A stretch of 64,000 nt of DNA, from the sequence record OQ689735.1; one strand, given 5' to 3'. Position numbers and translations under genes: made by a program. The notes beneath the pieces were generated by a model. The model was not told the DNA's origin, ran no database searches, and saw only the letters and a program-made list of their open reading frames with translations. Source of the DNA: Escherichia phage 4E10. Shown piece after piece: positions 56,135 to 64,000 of the stretch; position 1 is the first letter of the stretch, and each line of letters opens with the position of its first letter.

Positions 56135-58222
56135 TTATCCTTGAACGAACTTGTAAGGCATGTTTGTAATATCTATGCAAGACGCAATAATTCCAAGAGA
56201 TGATTCGACTTTCTGTTTAACATTTGATGAAACAAATGACGCAAAATCAACTCTGTCTTCTATATCACCTGTCATTGTAACCAATTCACCAGTTTCCATT
56301 AAATGGTCTCCGTCATAGATTACCGATTCGGTGAGTTCTTCTGTGGTCATAACTTCAGCTTGAATGAGTTTTGTATTATTAGATGTTGTTCCGTCATTAT
56401 TAGAAGCATCAGTTATTTTATTAACTTTGACCATCAATCCACGCGGTAGAATAACTTCAGCTTCTGTTGCTATTCCGAGACTTCCTGGATATACAACATT
56501 AACTTTATGAGCTCCATCAATTGCCCATCCTATTTGAACTTTAACGTATTCAGGATTTTCTTTATACGCTCTTATTTCGTTTGGATTAATAGTTATTCCT
56601 TCTTCATTTTTATCAACTGTTAATTCATTACGAGCTTCTGGTTCTAAAAGACCAATACCAGCATGTGTGATTCCAAAACGTCCAAAAATGATAGGAGTTA
56701 AAGAAGTAGATACAAAATTTCTGAAGTAGAACACTTTATTTTTAACTAACGCTTCATATATAGGAGCAGTCATACTTTGAGCACGATAAACTGTAATGCC
56801 TTCTGGTATACGGTCACCATTTTCAAAAGCTGAATCTAAGTTATTTATAGCAGATTCAATTTCTTTTTCACTCATTACATCATATCGTTCTGGATTGTAG
56901 CGGCCTAAAAGAAGATTATTGATGTCAGTATATCCTGAACCGCAATATTCTCTAATGCCACGCTTTTGCGATGGAGTATATTTAGAACCATCACGGGCAA
57001 TAGTAATATCAATCATTGGACCTGCACCAATTCCGGAAAAGCTATAAATCATTCGTTTGAGGAATTTAGTTTTTGCTGCGTTCCAAGAATTTTTAGTTAT
57101 TTCTTCCCAGACTTCATCTGGCTGCCCTTTACGAGTTTTATTATGTTTATCAAGCCAATTATCTTTATATTCTTCAAAGAATTGATTAACAGCTGCTGCG
57201 TATTTCTCTAAACATTTTATTGAAGTAGTTGGTTCATTTTTAATCGCATTAAGAATTACATCTTTAATTTTTTCAGAAACTTCATTAACCTCACTTTTTG
57301 AAAAGAATTTATAGTCATAGTGAAGTTCATCTGCGGTTCCTTCGGCAATGATTTTTGCTGCCTTAGTTTTAGAAGCTAATGAATTAATTCCAAGCTTCAT
57401 TTCTTCTGCTTCGGGAATTAAAGGAGCGGTAGCAGGTTTATTGAAATTAGCTGCGGTAGATTCATACTTCTGGAATAATTCACTTTCAAATCTAGAAGAT
57501 TCCAACGACTGACTTTGCGCAATTGCTCTACGTGAAATTTTAACTTTAACGATTACCGCTTGGTCAGAACGTTTATCATTTTCTTGCGCAATAGATGCTG
57601 CAATTGCCTCATTTTTAGTTACTTGGGCTCCAGTATCTTTATTGATATAAACATCACCGACCTTCGATTCAACTTTAGTAAAGAGCTCGGTACTAATTTC
57701 CGGAACTCCTGGAATGTCTTCTAGTGATACATTTTTGCGATGTATAAGAATATATGCATACTTTTTATCATAATCCCAGAGTTCCTTGAGAAGGACGTAT
57801 CTGCCACCTGAACGACTACGGATAAGTCTATCAGCAATAACTTGAATTTGTCGAGCTTGTCCAGCAGTTTTAGACTTAAGAATACGAAGCATACAAGCAT
57901 CAATTTTATATTGACGCATTGTTTGCATTGCAACAGTAAAAACTGAATTGATATAATTAATTGGGCTTGGACCAAGACCTTTTAATTTAGCAATTGAACC
58001 TTTAGCAGTTAATGTAAAAGGAACAATGTGCATCATTTTGTCGCCCATTTTTAAATCGCGATTAGTATCACCTCCAGATGTATATGTACATAAACGAAAG
58101 CCTGGTTGTTCAATTGCATCATCAACATGAACTGAAAAAATTTGTGGTATTTTCTTCTTTGGATTTAAGTTTGTAATCGGAAGAGTAGTATCTTCGTCAA
58201 ATAATTCTGTAATAAGTTCCAT
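56135..58222 (-). CDS. alt: Alt-like ADP-ribosyltransferase, upstream paralog
   Basis: 695 aa from the second Met (MELITELFD); ART triad (YRAQ, FVSTSL, EAEVILPRG); TATAAATA late promoter about 25 bp upstream; stop 3 nt before the next alt start. Confidence 0.85.
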   Translation of the reverse strand: MELITELFDEDTTLPITNLNPKKKIPQIFSVHVDDAIEQPGFRLCTYTSGGDTNRDLKMGDKMMHIVPFTLTAKGSIAKLKGLGPSPINYINSVFTVAMQTMRQYKIDACMLRILKSKTAGQARQIQVIADRLIRSRSGGRYVLLKELWDYDKKYAYILIHRKNVSLEDIPGVPEISTELFTKVESKVGDVYINKDTGAQVTKNEAIAASIAQENDKRSDQAVIVKVKISRRAIAQSQSLESSRFESELFQKYESTAANFNKPATAPLIPEAEEMKLGINSLASKTKAAKIIAEGTADELHYDYKFFSKSEVNEVSEKIKDVILNAIKNEPTTSIKCLEKYAAAVNQFFEEYKDNWLDKHNKTRKGQPDEVWEEITKNSWNAAKTKFLKRMIYSFSGIGAGPMIDITIARDGSKYTPSQKRGIREYCGSGYTDINNLLLGRYNPERYDVMSEKEIESAINNLDSAFENGDRIPEGITVYRAQSMTAPIYEALVKNKVFYFRNFVSTSLTPIIFGRFGITHAGIGLLEPEARNELTVDKNEEGITINPNEIRAYKENPEYVKVQIGWAIDGAHKVNVVYPGSLGIATEAEVILPRGLMVKVNKITDASNNDGTTSNNTKLIQAEVMTTEELTESVIYDGDHLMETGELVTMTGDIEDRVDFASFVSSNVKQKVESSLGIIASCIDITNMPYKFVQG

Positions 58223-58245
58223 CATAGCCTCTCTAGTGTTTATTC

Positions 58246-58253
58246 TATTTATA
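58246..58253 (-). promoter_or_regulatory. late promoter for the upstream alt paralog
   Basis: TATAAATA on the minus strand about 21 bp upstream of ATG 58222/58225. Confidence 0.55.
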
Positions 58254-58258
58254 AAATT

Positions 58259-58276
58259 AAAGGCCCGAAGGCCTTT
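58259..58276 (-). terminator. hairpin overlapping the stop of the 62-aa ORF, upstream of the alt late promoter
   Basis: AAAGGCC-CGAA-GGCCUUU followed on the minus strand by AAUUUUAU. Confidence 0.4.
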
Positions 58277-58463
58277 AGTAATCTAGTGGTAAGAGAGTAC
58301 GATATATTTCAAACTTTGGTCCTTTTTCATAGGCATCAAATGTTTCTGTAAATTTATTGTAAGCATATGCATCTACAAATTCGAGAATGACTTGTGATAC
58401 AGAAGTAGAAACATCTCCACCTTCTTTTTGAGCAATGACAATTGTTTCTAAGTAAGCTTTCAT
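58275..58463 (-). CDS. hypothetical small protein
   Basis: 62-aa ORF overlapping the ligase stop. Confidence 0.5.
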   Translation of the reverse strand: MKAYLETIVIAQKEGGDVSTSVSQVILEFVDAYAYNKFTETFDAYEKGPKFEIYRTLLPLDY

Positions 58464-59923
58464 AAACCAGTTACCTCATGAAAATCGCCAAATACATCCT
58501 CGAATGTATTAGCTTTAGTTTTATCTTCACGTAAACGAATCGCAATCGGAAGAAATAATTTAACGTAATCAGTGCGGCCATCAGATTTTAACCAACCGTT
58601 GCATTCGCACTCTAGAATTTTTCCAATATAATAATTTTGGTTTTCCATAATGCGAGTACGGTCAAGTTCATGCGATTTTACACCAGCTTTATCTTTTAAG
58701 CCTGAACCAGCATTTACTTTAATTTTTCCACACTCTGACTCAAGAATAAATCCACCCGCTTTAGTAGGGTCTTTACGGTGAGGATAAATTCCTACAATTT
58801 TTAAATCAACATCAATTATTTCTTTAAATTTATAAAGATTTTTTGAACGAGCATTTTCCCATAATCCATCGATATTTTTGAGAATAATACCTTCAAGACC
58901 TTGGTCAATATACTTTTTATAAATTACCTTAGCTTCATCTAGGTTATTTACTACCTGGTTTTCAATTAAAATTACTTTATCATAACCTGATGTCATTTGT
59001 TCTAGTTTAGAAAAACGTACATCATATTTCAAACGAAATGCAGGAAGACCGTATATTTCTACCAACGGGACATAATCCCAGACCTGAAACTTCATGCATT
59101 GAGCTTCTTTTTCAGAAATGGTTCCCTTTAAAGATTTATTAGCGATTCCATTAGAAGTAGTACGTGATTCAGCTACTTCGGCGAATTCTTTAGCTTTACT
59201 AATTTCAGGATAAGCATCAAAAAGAAAATCTAGGCCTTCTGGTTCCTTTTCAACTTGCTCATGGTATACCAATTCGCCATCAATTAACACACCTTCTGGA
59301 TGAATCTGGCGAGCTTCTGCAGTCATTTTGATTAACTCTTCCTTGAGAAGATCTAATCCTAGATATTCATTACCAGCTCGTGATAAAAGACGAACATCAT
59401 CTAATTCATCACCTCTGACTTCAGCAAAGCACCGAGCTCCATCAGCTTTTAATTGGGCAAAGGCTGGAAATTTGATATTCTTATTAATGCCTTTTTCATC
59501 ATAAGAACTTGCCAGCATTTGAGGTTGTTCAGGAATTAAACCTGGCCAAACTTTGTTTGCAATAGATACTGATGCACCACATTCAAGGTCTCGCATCATC
59601 ACCCGACGCAAAACTTCAACATCATCTTTTTTACCGTCAGCAATATATCCAGTTAATTCCTCAATTGCCGCATTTCCGGTCAATTTCCGAGTAGCTAACG
59701 TGAATTCAATGAAGTCAAGCATATCGGTAAGAGTCAACATTCCAAAACTCTGGGTAGCAATACCAGGTTTAGGCCATTTCTTGATATAATACTGTAACCC
59801 ACGAGAATAAGTCAGACGATATACTCGTTTAAGTAATTCATTATCTTTATTCTTTTCAAGAATTGCTTGCTTCTGCTTAGTTGAACCAATAGATGCTATT
59901 TCGTTCAGAATTTTAAGAATCAT
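58460..59923 (-). CDS. 30: ATP-dependent DNA ligase
   Basis: 487 aa; adenylation motif KADGAR; size matches T4 gp30. Confidence 0.95.
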   Translation of the reverse strand: MILKILNEIASIGSTKQKQAILEKNKDNELLKRVYRLTYSRGLQYYIKKWPKPGIATQSFGMLTLTDMLDFIEFTLATRKLTGNAAIEELTGYIADGKKDDVEVLRRVMMRDLECGASVSIANKVWPGLIPEQPQMLASSYDEKGINKNIKFPAFAQLKADGARCFAEVRGDELDDVRLLSRAGNEYLGLDLLKEELIKMTAEARQIHPEGVLIDGELVYHEQVEKEPEGLDFLFDAYPEISKAKEFAEVAESRTTSNGIANKSLKGTISEKEAQCMKFQVWDYVPLVEIYGLPAFRLKYDVRFSKLEQMTSGYDKVILIENQVVNNLDEAKVIYKKYIDQGLEGIILKNIDGLWENARSKNLYKFKEIIDVDLKIVGIYPHRKDPTKAGGFILESECGKIKVNAGSGLKDKAGVKSHELDRTRIMENQNYYIGKILECECNGWLKSDGRTDYVKLFLPIAIRLREDKTKANTFEDVFGDFHEVTGL

Positions 59924-60189
59924 TGTTCATCCTTTAGAGTTTGGTTTACAGCTCTATTATAAATCAATTCATCATTAAGCTCAGTCAAAGACCTGTGGTA
60001 CGTGGTTCTAACTTTATTTCCTTGCATCCAGTGCTTGACGTAAATGAAACCTTGCTCTACACATTTTTTAAAAATTCGTTCGTCTTTTTGAGCTCGAAAT
60101 TCTGGATTGCATCTAAAAAATTGATTTACGTGACCGTAATCACGTGTAGTATTACCTTCATTTTCATAAATAGTGTGAACGACAAACAT
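59920..60189 (-). CDS. hypothetical protein
   Basis: 89-aa ORF, translationally coupled to neighbours. Confidence 0.55.
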   Translation of the reverse strand: MFVVHTIYENEGNTTRDYGHVNQFFRCNPEFRAQKDERIFKKCVEQGFIYVKHWMQGNKVRTTYHRSLTELNDELIYNRAVNQTLKDEQ

Positions 60190-61025
60190 TAGAATGCTCC
60201 TTGGAAAATATTATCACCACCAGTAGGTCTATTATACAAATACTCTATGCCACCAGGTTTAATATAGTTCCATGTCTGAAACGGATGTGTCTGATATGGA
60301 TGATATAGATTATAAGGATTAAATCCAGGAGTTCTCCAGGTAGTGTTCCAAGGAAAAGAATCATTTTTAATCATCTTTTCAATTACATCTTTTATAGCTT
60401 TTTCACTATCAAAACTTTCTTTATTTTCCTTCGATGGAAAAAGCTTATTCTCTACATCATTCCATGTATAAACTCGCTGCGCAGTTTTTGGAATACTGTC
60501 ACGCTCCCCTCGAGCCATCCAATAAACAGGAACATTTAATATTTCACTCGCGTGATCGCAGTGGTGAGCGAGATCGTCAATATAACAAATTACGTTATAT
60601 TTCTCTTTTGCCTTTTTGAACAACTCTTCTTTTGAAGAATCATGACCACACATCAATACTTCTGAGAAGGCACCAGGAAAAAGAGCATTCAAATTAAATT
60701 GACGATTTAGCAGAGCGTCAATAGAATCACCCAATGCTGTAACAGCTACAAAATTATAATCTTCTTTTAATTTGTTAATTACACACAGGGCATCTTTATA
60801 CGGAGACAAGTAACGAATAAAATCTGAACGATTGTATTTTTCAATTAACTTGACACCAAGTTCTTCATCGCAATTAAAGAGCTTACCAGGAGAAATAAAT
60901 TTTTCGTCCTGAATCATTTTTAAAATATGTTCCAACGGAAGATTATATTTTTGGGCAAAATAAGGAAGACCTGATTGCCAGCTTAAACATACACCATCAA
61001 TATCAGTTAAAATAGTAGGCTTCAT
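60189..61025 (-). CDS. HAD-superfamily hydrolase-like protein
   Basis: 278 aa; N-terminal DIDGV motif typical of HAD motif I; otherwise unverified. Confidence 0.5.
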   Translation of the reverse strand: MKPTILTDIDGVCLSWQSGLPYFAQKYNLPLEHILKMIQDEKFISPGKLFNCDEELGVKLIEKYNRSDFIRYLSPYKDALCVINKLKEDYNFVAVTALGDSIDALLNRQFNLNALFPGAFSEVLMCGHDSSKEELFKKAKEKYNVICYIDDLAHHCDHASEILNVPVYWMARGERDSIPKTAQRVYTWNDVENKLFPSKENKESFDSEKAIKDVIEKMIKNDSFPWNTTWRTPGFNPYNLYHPYQTHPFQTWNYIKPGGIEYLYNRPTGGDNIFQGAF

Positions 61026-61486
61026 AGAGAGTCTCTTAATAGGTTTAACACATCAATAAATTCAGCTTCAGTTAGTATTGTATCATCTTTTGTTAGACCA
61101 CTAGCCATGCTGTGCTTCAAAACTTTTCCTTTCGAGGCTTGTAATGCATCACGAAAGCCCTTGTTTTGGATCGCTGCCTCAAAATACGCATTTGTGTATA
61201 ATTCTTTCCAGGCTGGGGAGTATCTTGAAAACGGAACTCCAAGCCAGAAGAGGGTCCCACGGTCCTGAGCTCTAGCATAAGACCTTCCAGCTTGTTGGGC
61301 GGCAAGCCCGGATAACCCAAATATACGTCTTTGCTGTTCAACATTTTTCACCTTACATCCTTGGAGGAATCCTTCGAGACCTCCAAATTGAATGCCATCC
61401 ATAACGAAAGGCCAATAGGCGAAATTACTTAATGCACATGATGGCCACCTAAAATTACTTCTAATCTCTAACTCAGACATTTTCAA
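61022..61486 (-). CDS. NADAR (YbiA/DUF1768)-like protein, candidate ADP-ribose-processing enzyme
   Basis: 154 aa; N-terminal SCALSNFAYWPFVMDGIQFGGLEGFLQGCKV resembles the NADAR signature as remembered. Confidence 0.45.
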   Translation of the reverse strand: MKMSELEIRSNFRWPSCALSNFAYWPFVMDGIQFGGLEGFLQGCKVKNVEQQRRIFGLSGLAAQQAGRSYARAQDRGTLFWLGVPFSRYSPAWKELYTNAYFEAAIQNKGFRDALQASKGKVLKHSMASGLTKDDTILTEAEFIDVLNLLRDSL

Positions 61487-61679
61487 TGCTTATAATTTCA
61501 ACATCAGCCCAATGACCATAGTTTGGTAGACGAAATTCAACTGGCCAGTCACTGCCTTTTTCTAATATAATAGACTCAACTTGCGGTTCTTCATGTTCAT
61601 CAGTATATGGATTTTTATCTGTTACTTTATATGTGACCTTAATGTACTGAATTCCAAAAATCTTATTAATTATATTCAT
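61473..61679 (-). CDS. hypothetical small protein
   Basis: 68-aa ORF. Confidence 0.5.
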   Translation of the reverse strand: MNIINKIFGIQYIKVTYKVTDKNPYTDEHEEPQVESIILEKGSDWPVEFRLPNYGHWADVEIISIENV

Positions 61680-61873
61680 ACTAATTCCTTTAATCCGTAA
61701 ATAGGAGATAATTCATCACCCATACGAAGGTCTTCATTTCCATCTACCCAGGAAACAATATAAGCCTCTTTTATTTGAACACCACTCCATTTAAATGGAG
61801 GTAGAACCTTAGAAATTAATCCAGGTATACCAACTTCCTTTAATTCAACAGTTTGACCTAAAAAGAATTTCAT
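61676..61873 (-). CDS. hypothetical small protein
   Basis: 65-aa ORF. Confidence 0.5.
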   Translation of the reverse strand: MKFFLGQTVELKEVGIPGLISKVLPPFKWSGVQIKEAYIVSWVDGNEDLRMGDELSPIYGLKELV

Positions 61874-62160
61874 CAGAACCTCATCTGAAAGCCGTGTGAT
61901 TTAACATTACCGCCGCCAATATCAGAAATATTAATTTCACACGCAATTGAAGGGTCAATGTCAATTTCACGATTAAGTTTAGCGATAGCTAAAGTATCAC
62001 GCCCATTTACTGTACGGAATTCTAAAGGACAAACCACATCAACATAATTTTTAATCGATTCACTGGTAGGTTGCAAATGAGCAGGAAGGTCTTTAGGCGC
62101 CTTAGAGAAAACAACTTCACAGAAATTTTTGCGGGTATCAAAATAAGTAGTCATAAACAT
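61873..62160 (-). CDS. hypothetical protein
   Basis: ORF 61873..62211; likely start ATG 62160 (MFMTTYFD) with GAGGAAAA SD; the track's 5' extension runs through an intergenic hairpin. Confidence 0.5.
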   Translation of the reverse strand: MFMTTYFDTRKNFCEVVFSKAPKDLPAHLQPTSESIKNYVDVVCPLEFRTVNGRDTLAIAKLNREIDIDPSIACEINISDIGGGNVKSHGFQMRF

Positions 62161-62177
62161 AGTATTTTCCTCAGTAA

Positions 62178-62200
62178 GGGGCCGAAGCCCCTGTTTTATT
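62178..62200. terminator. intergenic GGGGCCGAAGCCCC hairpin (terminator-like on the plus strand, stability element on the minus strand)
   Basis: perfect hairpin; the T-run follows on the plus strand only, although flanking genes are minus-strand. Confidence 0.35.
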
Positions 62201-62566
62201 TTAAATATCAAATTCGTTAAGAACTACATCAAAGATTGCTTCAAGATGCTCAGGTTTAGCTCTGTTACTCAAAATATGACGAATCCAAGTTTTAACCAGA
62301 AGCTTACGATTAGCGCCATTCCAGCAAGGATGGGTCCCTAAATCGCGTTGACGAAAATCATCATCCAGAGCGATTTTAAAGTTGGAACCTTCCATTGTGA
62401 TTGAAACCGTGATGCCATTTTCAAATCGCATATAAACGTAATTAGGAGTCATATACTGTTCAATTTCGCATACTGATCCATTTTGATGTTTCCAAAGGCA
62501 AATAGTATCAATAGAACCTGCAATACCATTAGAAACATATTTACGTTCAAAGTTGATGTAGTTCAT
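62201..62566 (-). CDS. hypothetical protein
   Basis: 121-aa ORF with SD; early promoter with inverted repeat upstream. Confidence 0.55.
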   Translation of the reverse strand: MNYINFERKYVSNGIAGSIDTICLWKHQNGSVCEIEQYMTPNYVYMRFENGITVSITMEGSNFKIALDDDFRQRDLGTHPCWNGANRKLLVKTWIRHILSNRAKPEHLEAIFDVVLNEFDI

Positions 62567-62599
62567 TTTTATTCTCCGAGATGTTTAATTGCGGTACAG

Positions 62600-62634
62600 G
62601 TATATAATATCATATCCTGTACCAAAGTAAACAA
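62600..62634 (-). promoter_or_regulatory. T4 early-type promoter embedded in an inverted repeat
   Basis: minus strand GTTTAC, 17 bp, TATTAT; inverted repeat GGTACAGG (62593-62600) / CCTGTACC (62616-62623) flanks the -10 region. Confidence 0.45.
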
Positions 62635-62967
62635 TTATTTTACTACTTTCCAGTGCTTCATGTCAAGTTTACCAACTTTTTTCATCTTCTCAATCAAACG
62701 TTCGGCACGTTGGCGAGCTGTAACATAATACCATTCGCCTAATTCATTTTGTTCAATTTTTCCAACGATTACTGTATTCAATTCATAAATCCAACCAGTA
62801 AAGAAATTATGAACTTGAATTGTAAAGGTGAAATCTGTTCCCATACCTTCTGTTGTTTCTACTTCAATAATATCACCTTCAACTGCCATTAAGAACCACA
62901 TAGTTTCATCATATTTACCATTGAAGCATTTAGTTTTAACTGCAGCGTTCAGATTAATCGTTTTCAT
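62635..62967 (-). CDS. hypothetical protein
   Basis: 110-aa ORF with AAAGGAGAA SD; early promoter 62990-63026 upstream. Confidence 0.55.
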   Translation of the reverse strand: MKTINLNAAVKTKCFNGKYDETMWFLMAVEGDIIEVETTEGMGTDFTFTIQVHNFFTGWIYELNTVIVGKIEQNELGEWYYVTARQRAERLIEKMKKVGKLDMKHWKVVK

Positions 62968-62989
62968 TTTATTCTCCTTTGTTTGTGTA

Positions 62990-63026
62990 AGATAATACTA
63001 TCACAAAGGAACCATACTGTAAACAA
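62990..63026 (-). promoter_or_regulatory. T4 early-type promoter
   Basis: minus strand GTTTACA, 18 bp, TGaTAGTAT; same motif family as the 6142 and 6508 promoters. Confidence 0.5.
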
Positions 63027-63041
63027 CTTTGTGCAATCTTT

Positions 63042-63073
63042 GGAAAATAAAAAAGGACTCCCGAAGGAGTCCT
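63042..63073 (-). terminator. terminator after the small basic-protein gene
   Basis: minus-strand AGGACUCC-UUCG-GGAGUCCU hairpin followed by UUUUUUAUUUU. Confidence 0.6.
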
Positions 63074-63077
63074 TAAC

Positions 63078-63254
63078 TTATGCTTTCTGCTTACCAAAAC
63101 GAGAAGCATCATCTCTAAGAACCGCACGTGCTCGGCGCATGATCTTCTCAACAGTTTGATTGATACGAGAGTTCGACCCACGCTTGTAGCCAGCGCGTTT
63201 AGAATCACCAACTTTCTTTTCAACTGCTTTCTTTGCTTTAGCTTGTTTTGCCAT
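63078..63254 (-). CDS. small basic protein
   Basis: 58 aa from ATG 63254 (MAKQAKAKKAVEKK...); terminator directly after the stop. Confidence 0.5.
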   Translation of the reverse strand: MAKQAKAKKAVEKKVGDSKRAGYKRGSNSRINQTVEKIMRRARAVLRDDASRFGKQKA

Positions 63255-63498
63255 TATAAATTCTCTTTTAAATGAAAATGCAGGACTTATTGGCATTGCC
63301 TGCGCAAGCCCTCAAGGGGAACGTAGGTTTTTGGATATTTAACGACAGGATAACCATAAACCCGTCATCATTCACATTCAAGAGGTACACCATAAAACTG
63401 CCGGGGTCTTAAAACTATAATGATTCGCAAATCATTAATCAGACAGTTCGATGGCTCCTCGATTTTAGCTCACACTAAGGCAGTGAATCTCCAATAAA

Positions 63499-63747
63499 TT
63501 ACTTCAGTGTTACCACAAAGTGACGAACTGCTTTTCGTGCAGCAGAAGCCAGAGGCTTAGCATACTTAAGTTCATCTTTTTCCTGAAGCTCAGCAGCTAA
63601 TGCAGTTTGAGCAGGATTCAGATGTTTGAAATAACGCAGGATTTCAAGAGCTTCGGCTTCAACATCAATAGATGCGCCATAGTTTTCGTGACCATTATTC
63701 CATGCGTTTCGTTGCAGTTCAAGAGCGTGTTGTAATTGTTTAATCAT
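63499..63747 (-). CDS. rIII: lysis-inhibition accessory protein rIII-like
   Basis: 82 aa, size and position (between gene 30 block and gene 31) match T4 rIII; assignment from memory. Confidence 0.6.
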   Translation of the reverse strand: MIKQLQHALELQRNAWNNGHENYGASIDVEAEALEILRYFKHLNPAQTALAAELQEKDELKYAKPLASAARKAVRHFVVTLK

Positions 63748-63886
63748 TTAAAAATTCTCGTTAGAGATTAAAACTCGGTAGTCACGTTCTTCTGAATTTC
63801 ATCTTCTTTCGACAGATCTCTCAGTTGTAGACTACCACATAGAATTGTTCGGTTAACTTATTATTCCGACACCCAATTCATATTAT

Positions 63887-63894
63887 TATTTATA
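63887..63894 (-). promoter_or_regulatory. late promoter-like element upstream of rIII
   Basis: TATAAATA on the minus strand abutting the stop of the partial gene 31, 140 bp upstream of rIII. Confidence 0.4.
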
Positions 63895-64000
63895 TCACTT
63901 ATAAAGACACGGAATAGCTTTATAGTGACAAGTAACGAATTTTTGTTTAATTTCTTTTGGCTGCTTAAGACCCAGAGCTACAAAAGGATGCGGAACATTT
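63895..64000 (-). CDS. 31: 3' end of a gene running off the window, probably co-chaperonin gene 31
   Basis: open minus-strand frame from the window edge to TGA at 63897-63895 (...[34 protein letters not shown]); position corresponds to T4 gene 31. Confidence 0.4.

Follow-up and report, generated by a model that had tools for sequence, protein, structure and literature searches.

Escherichia phage 4E10 carries a full-length, presumably active allele of adfN, the NADAR-fold gene 30.3 of T4-type phages

A minus-strand open reading frame at positions 61022–61486 of the Escherichia phage 4E10 sequence (record OQ689735.1; the 64,000-nucleotide stretch analyzed here is referred to as the window) raises the question of whether the phage encodes an enzyme that removes ADP-ribose from nucleic acid bases, and whether such an enzyme would serve to counter an ADP-ribosylating toxin of the host. 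The reading frame, which includes the stretch LSNFAYWPFVMDGIQFGGLEGFLQGCKV quoted in the initial annotation, is confirmed as a real gene. It has 154 amino acids if counted from a TTG at 61486, as was done there; this TTG is in frame and lies two codons upstream of an ATG at 61480, which begins a protein of 152 residues (MSELEIR...) and is the start in T4 and in all full-length orthologs. Because the more distant full-length orthologs have equal N-terminal length, the ATG rather than the TTG is the likely start, giving a predicted coding sequence at 61022–61480 on the minus strand. Its product shares 150 of its 152 residues with T4 gp30.3 (99% identity), with equal length and no frameshift, and the two substitutions, Q22Y and I125M, both fall in variable columns of the alignment. 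The surrounding DNA (60000–62000) matches 695 phage records, mostly from Escherichia and Shigella T4-type phages, the best being Shigella phage SH7 at 99.3%. Judged by sequence, the gene is the ortholog of adfN (T4 gene 30.3) in a T4-type phage (Tequatrovirus). The best explanation of the locus as a whole, to which we assign a probability of roughly 93%, is that it is adfN of such a phage, encoding a NADAR-fold guanine-ADP-ribose N-glycosidase that counters DarTG1. The function of gene 30.3 is thus already known, having been published in 2024–2025, and the window holds an ordinary, intact allele.

The gene belongs to a single, tightly packed minus-strand block in which starts and stops overlap. 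The order in T4 (NC_000866) is alt, alt.1, 30 (ligase), 30.1, 30.2, 30.3, and 30.4, and the order alt-30-30.1-30.2-30.3-30.4 is conserved in 4E10. The block 30.4-30.3-30.2-30.1-ligase that marks the AdfN of T-even phages is present, and the neighbors are 93–97% identical to those of T4. Gene 30, the ATP-dependent DNA ligase, is located downstream in the block at 58460–59923 (minus strand; PF01068, E = 1.6e-32, and T4 synteny). The gene had been described as adjacent to DNA ligase, which is correct in that both belong to one block but holds only loosely, since 30.2 and 30.1 intervene. The accompanying assertion that the phage has an ADP-ribosyltransferase is borne out by alt, which encodes the virion-packaged enzyme at 56135–58225 (minus strand; PF03496, E = 1.8e-37, and T4 synteny) and is considered here as context. 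The Alt reading frame is 696 amino acids long in 4E10 versus 682 annotated in T4 (2049 nucleotides), a difference of 14 residues.

The gene 30.3 product matches the Pfam family PF08010 (Phage_30_3) over its whole length (E = 1.5e-69; 232.6 bits against a bit-score cutoff of 36; profile positions 1–138 of 138). The NADAR family PF08719 is not matched by the protein in the Pfam scan at E values up to 1, the NCBIfam scan finds no family, and the sole match in the PHROGs scan is a family of unknown function. Searching PDB sequences by phmmer with the protein alone returned only a spurious hit (E = 0.62), and a profile was therefore needed. Profile searching retrieved more than 6000 clusters of relatives, some bearing both Pfam labels and some named YbiA or DUF1768 in their source, and 24 of 52 diverse PF08010 relatives individually match PF08719, with a best E value of 2.8e-7. 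The profile built from these 52 sequences finds E. coli YbiA (2b3w) among PDB sequences with an E value of 0.0024, in an alignment that pairs SNF with SNF and EGFLQxxK with EHYFQAQK, and hhalign comparison of the family profile with YbiA gives a probability of 93.6% (E = 2e-7) over 133 columns. The family alignment also served to build an AlphaFold2 model (pLDDT 93.9, pTM 0.89), which has the YbiA-like alpha+beta fold, in which two small beta sheets flank a helical core. As judged from these comparisons, the resemblance to NADAR proteins is far beyond chance, in agreement with the NADAR/YbiA-like fold originally proposed for this product. Because the PF08719 and single-sequence PDB searches yielded no meaningful match, the assignment rests on profiles and fold, and the link to PF08719 is at the level of the superfamily rather than direct.

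The residues expected of a NADAR enzyme are in place. The SNF motif of the core (codons Ser18-Asn19-Phe20, 61421–61429, minus strand) has Ser18 and Asn19 invariant and Phe20 nearly invariant among the 52 family members. It is followed by the catalytic stretch EGFLQGCK (codons Glu36 to Lys43, 61352–61375, minus strand), in which Glu36 is invariant and Lys43 nearly invariant in both alignments of the family, the larger having 52 sequences; the two residues lie seven apart on the core helix, as in NADAR proteins. Both the NADAR homology and the catalytic residues, whose absence had been named as grounds for refuting the annotation, consequently speak in its favor. The counterparts of Glu36 and Lys43 in the published structure of Phytophthora NADAR are E43 and K50, and mutants E36A and K43A of T4 AdfN are impaired (PMC11825919). 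His123 (codon 61112–61114, minus strand), which follows strand 120–122 in the model, is invariant in both alignments, including all 52 sequences of the larger. In NADARs of the gp30.3 type a histidine of the last strand stands where the YbiA family has Glu and the DarG1/BC4488 family has Asp, and hhalign places His123 opposite the His that follows the YbiA Glu, an ambiguity of one residue. With its full-length PF08010 match and its His for the last-strand Glu/Asp, the 4E10 protein falls in this phage-type clade. The C-terminal helix (residues 138–151, codons 61028–61069, minus strand) is modeled with high confidence and is covered by the full-length alignment with T4, so that the 152-residue allele lacks the frameshift of the RB69 type. 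The frameshifted RB69 allele loses this helix and RB69 is sensitive to DarTG1, and the truncated protein has reduced activity (PMC11825919). The 4E10 allele, known here from its sequence, thus has the length, neighborhood, catalytic residues, and C-terminal helix of T4 AdfN, from which it differs by the two substitutions given above. Because Glu36, Lys43, His123, and helix 138–151 are all retained and both substitutions are at variable columns, the allele is expected to be active.

Evidence for protection against DarTG1 and for glycohydrolase activity comes from the literature on the T4 and T2 alleles. Johannesman et al. (2025) identified gene 30.3, which they renamed adfN, as the source of DarTG1 resistance in T2 and T4 and showed T4 AdfN to be a guanine-ADP-ribose DNA glycohydrolase, both required and sufficient for this resistance (PMC11825919). 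Upon deletion of adfN, T4 and T2 no longer plaque on DarTG1, ectopic expression of adfN rescues RB69, and purified T4 AdfN strips ADP-ribose from DarT1-modified DNA (PMC11825919). Purified T4 gp30.3 hydrolyzes guanosine-ADP-ribose on DNA in vitro but not thymidine-ADP-ribose (PMC11125620), and the T4 protein has no activity against DarTG2. In an independent transposon-sequencing experiment with T4 on DarTG1, insertions in gene 30.3 have a log2 fold change of −7.25 with an adjusted p of 0, and comparative genomics indicates that T4-like phages express NADAR genes early, alongside their ADP-ribosyltransferases. The role initially put forward for this gene, removal of ADP-ribose from nucleic acid bases as a counter-defense against a DarT-type toxin, has thus been demonstrated experimentally for T4 AdfN, which is 99% identical (PMC11825919, PMC11125620). 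We infer that the 4E10 allele with Q22Y and I125M behaves like T4 AdfN. The 152-residue protein would then be a stand-alone NADAR-fold N-glycosidase acting early in infection, hydrolyzing the linkage by which the DarT1 toxin of the host attaches ADP-ribose to guanine in single-stranded phage DNA. Free ADP-ribose would be released and the unmodified template restored, allowing replication to proceed in DarTG1 cells. Catalysis would proceed via Glu36 and Lys43 on the central helix together with the clade-specific His123, and the C-terminal helix would be required for full activity.

T4 AdfN fails to neutralize DarT1 in uninfected E. coli and rescues phages outside the T-even group poorly (PMC11825919, PMC11125620). 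The weak activity outside T-even infection makes the picture of AdfN acting alone incomplete, and a T-even factor needed for full activity of T4 AdfN has been postulated (PMC11825919). Gene 30.4 (61473–61679, minus strand) encodes an acidic protein of 68 amino acids, with 12 acidic and 6 basic residues, that is 93% identical to T4 gp30.4. Its last 8 nucleotides overlap the start of adfN, with the ATG at 61480 and the 30.4 stop at 61473–61475, an arrangement that suggests translational coupling. Apart from 30.3, the one gene significantly depleted when T4 transposon insertions were screened on DarTG1 is 30.4 (log2 fold change −1.79, adjusted p 0.014), a result that goes unmentioned in the text of the paper reporting the screen. 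Given the overlap of 30.4 with the adfN start, the depletion is most simply explained by polarity or by a loss of translational coupling to adfN. That gp30.4 is itself the postulated factor is unlikely, and in the loci examined 30.4 is not detectable beside the more distant 30.3 orthologs.

The gene immediately downstream of adfN is 30.2 (60189–61025, minus strand), whose ATG overlaps the stop of 30.3 as ATGA. Its product begins MKPTILTDIDGV and is 97% identical to T4 gp30.2. The predicted structure has a Rossmannoid HAD core spanning about residues 1–220, with all four motifs (DxD, S/T, K, and DD) at the ends of core strands, as expected of a HAD-fold phosphatase-like protein and as proposed in the initial annotation. 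Scans of Pfam and NCBIfam assign gp30.2 to no HAD family, and a weak match is found only to PHROG 415 (polynucleotide kinase; E = 0.004). Relatives of gp30.2 are confined to T4-type phages and constitute a divergent HAD lineage, and a literature search for "gp30.2" found nothing. The last ~55 residues, from about 223, are rich in Pro, Asn, Tyr, and Trp; the model has low confidence there, and the length of this tail differs from relative to relative.

The explanations that compete with the DarTG1 reading differ mainly in the substrate assigned to the enzyme. The fold and the Glu/Lys motif are shared with E. coli YbiA, which has published activity on riboflavin-pathway intermediates, and gene 30.3 might accordingly encode a housekeeping N-glycosidase that destroys these reactive intermediates and has no role in defense. 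However, the Glu that defines YbiA is replaced by the invariant His in the gene 30.3 family, the published phylogeny places the gp30.3 clade nearest to the DarG1 NADARs, and according to the literature the T4 ortholog is dispensable on K-12 and essential on DarTG1, so a YbiA-type role is scarcely credible. The location of 30.3 in one early block with alt would also fit an enzyme whose main substrates are soluble immune signals derived from ADP-ribose, or the ADP-ribose marks made by Alt, ModA, and ModB, in the latter case tuning the modification program of the phage itself; soluble ADP-ribose derivatives have indeed been proposed from comparative genomics as the preferred targets of phage NADARs. 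Against this, the selective value of the gene is accounted for by the direct DNA de-ADP-ribosylation assay and the DarTG1-specific phenotype of T4, and in every reported assay NADARs are N-glycosidases specific for guanine-linked ADP-ribose. We consider such substrates very unlikely to be the main ones, and AdfN may have an additional, secondary substrate.

A further possibility, raised when the locus was first annotated, is that 30.3 and 30.2 supply successive enzymes of one pathway, with the HAD protein processing the product released by the NADAR enzyme. The ATGA overlap, the 4-nucleotide overlap also present in a phage with a 30.3 of just 46% identity, and the bona fide HAD fold with intact motifs are all compatible with this proposal. 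It is opposed by the transposon data for T4 on DarTG1, where insertions in 30.2 (71 sites) are not depleted (log2 fold change −0.12, p 0.61) and the gene is dispensable, and by its distribution. Of 80 viral loci carrying a 30.3 homolog, just 20 have a 30.2 homolog within 4 kb, among them all the close relatives but few of those that are roughly 40% identical. With the exception of L037, every such locus that extends far enough downstream has 30.2 directly adjoining the ligase gene, and other genes sometimes separate it from 30.3. On chemical grounds, ADP-ribose is a pyrophosphate diester offering no phosphomonoester to a HAD phosphatase, so that a Nudix step would be required before any such enzyme could act. 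The pathway therefore has a very low probability, comparable to that of the soluble signals or Alt, ModA, and ModB marks as main substrates, and the suggested coupling of 30.2 to the NADAR gene is not supported, although the HAD fold itself is. The transposon data, together with the weak linkage outside close relatives, also led us to reject 30.2 as a partner or potentiating factor of AdfN. The position of 30.2 directly upstream of the ligase gene persists even in distant T4-type phages (loci L015–L017, L042, L043, and L050), where 30.1 is absent or other genes lie between 30.2 and 30.3. The gene neighborhoods hint at a function for 30.2 tied to ligase, DNA ends, or nucleotides rather than to AdfN.

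Returning to AdfN as a guanine-ADP-ribose N-glycosidase directed against DarTG1, comparison with characterized proteins indicates how the phage enzyme differs from its relatives. DarG1, the NADAR antitoxin of DarTG1 (E. coli C7; G. lovleyi 8bat), has a basic N-terminal extension that is absent from the phage protein and an Asp where the phage protein has His, and, unlike DarG1, the phage protein is an orphan without a cognate toxin. In YbiA and in Phytophthora NADAR (8bau), the position of the phage His is occupied by the last-strand Glu of the YbiA family, and YbiA, unlike AdfN, is a housekeeping N-glycosidase of riboflavin intermediates encoded in a LexA-controlled operon. The AdfN proteins of Bas32 and Bas60 and the T4 macrodomain protein AdfM (Tk.4) are likewise phage-encoded orphan enzymes that reverse DNA ADP-ribosylation of the DarT type. 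The NADARs of Bas32 and Bas60 fall into different NADAR clades and do not depend on T-even factors, whereas AdfM, with its unrelated macrodomain fold, is directed against the thymidine-modifying DarTG2.

Most GenBank records label adfN as a hypothetical protein; the annotation here can be adfN, a full-length and presumably active allele, and its presence predicts that 4E10 is resistant to DarTG1. The case also has value for calibration, in that a reader given the raw sequence alone recovered the correct fold and biological role.

Scans of positions 58000–64000 for transcription signals gave 22 sigma-70 promoter sites versus 21.0 ± 4.3 in shuffled sequence and 4 terminator sites versus 3.4 ± 1.8. 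These counts are no higher than shuffled, and therefore nothing firm can be concluded about transcription units. A near-consensus sigma-70-like site (TTGACA-18-TAAAAT, 11/12) lies at 62637–62666 on the minus strand upstream of gene 30.7, and GC-rich hairpins with a T-run lie on the same strand at 58258–58277, just after alt.1, and at 63053–63074, just after 30.9. Subject to the same comparison with shuffled sequence, these three sites could bracket a transcription unit extending from 30.7 to alt.1.

The frame annotated in T4 as 30.3' (75 amino acids, in another frame inside 30.3) is open in 4E10 as well, at 61117–61344 on the minus strand. Its candidacy as a real gene was rejected: each of the nine nucleotide differences from T4 within the overlap leaves the 30.3 protein unchanged but alters an amino acid of 30.3', and relatives often lose its ATG or its frame, one having an internal stop. 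Such a pattern looks like that of a frame under no constraint, not of a gene.

NADARs of the His type (PF08010) also occur outside phages (loci L083, L084, and L086). A 995-kb contig from Bacteroides and a 290-kb contig from Limnocylindrales each have a lone PF08010 gene in a housekeeping neighborhood that lacks an ADP-ribosyltransferase. There are also PF08010 forms of ~286–301 amino acids, one of them on a 364-kb contig that also carries RecA and an RNA-polymerase subunit and may represent a jumbo phage.
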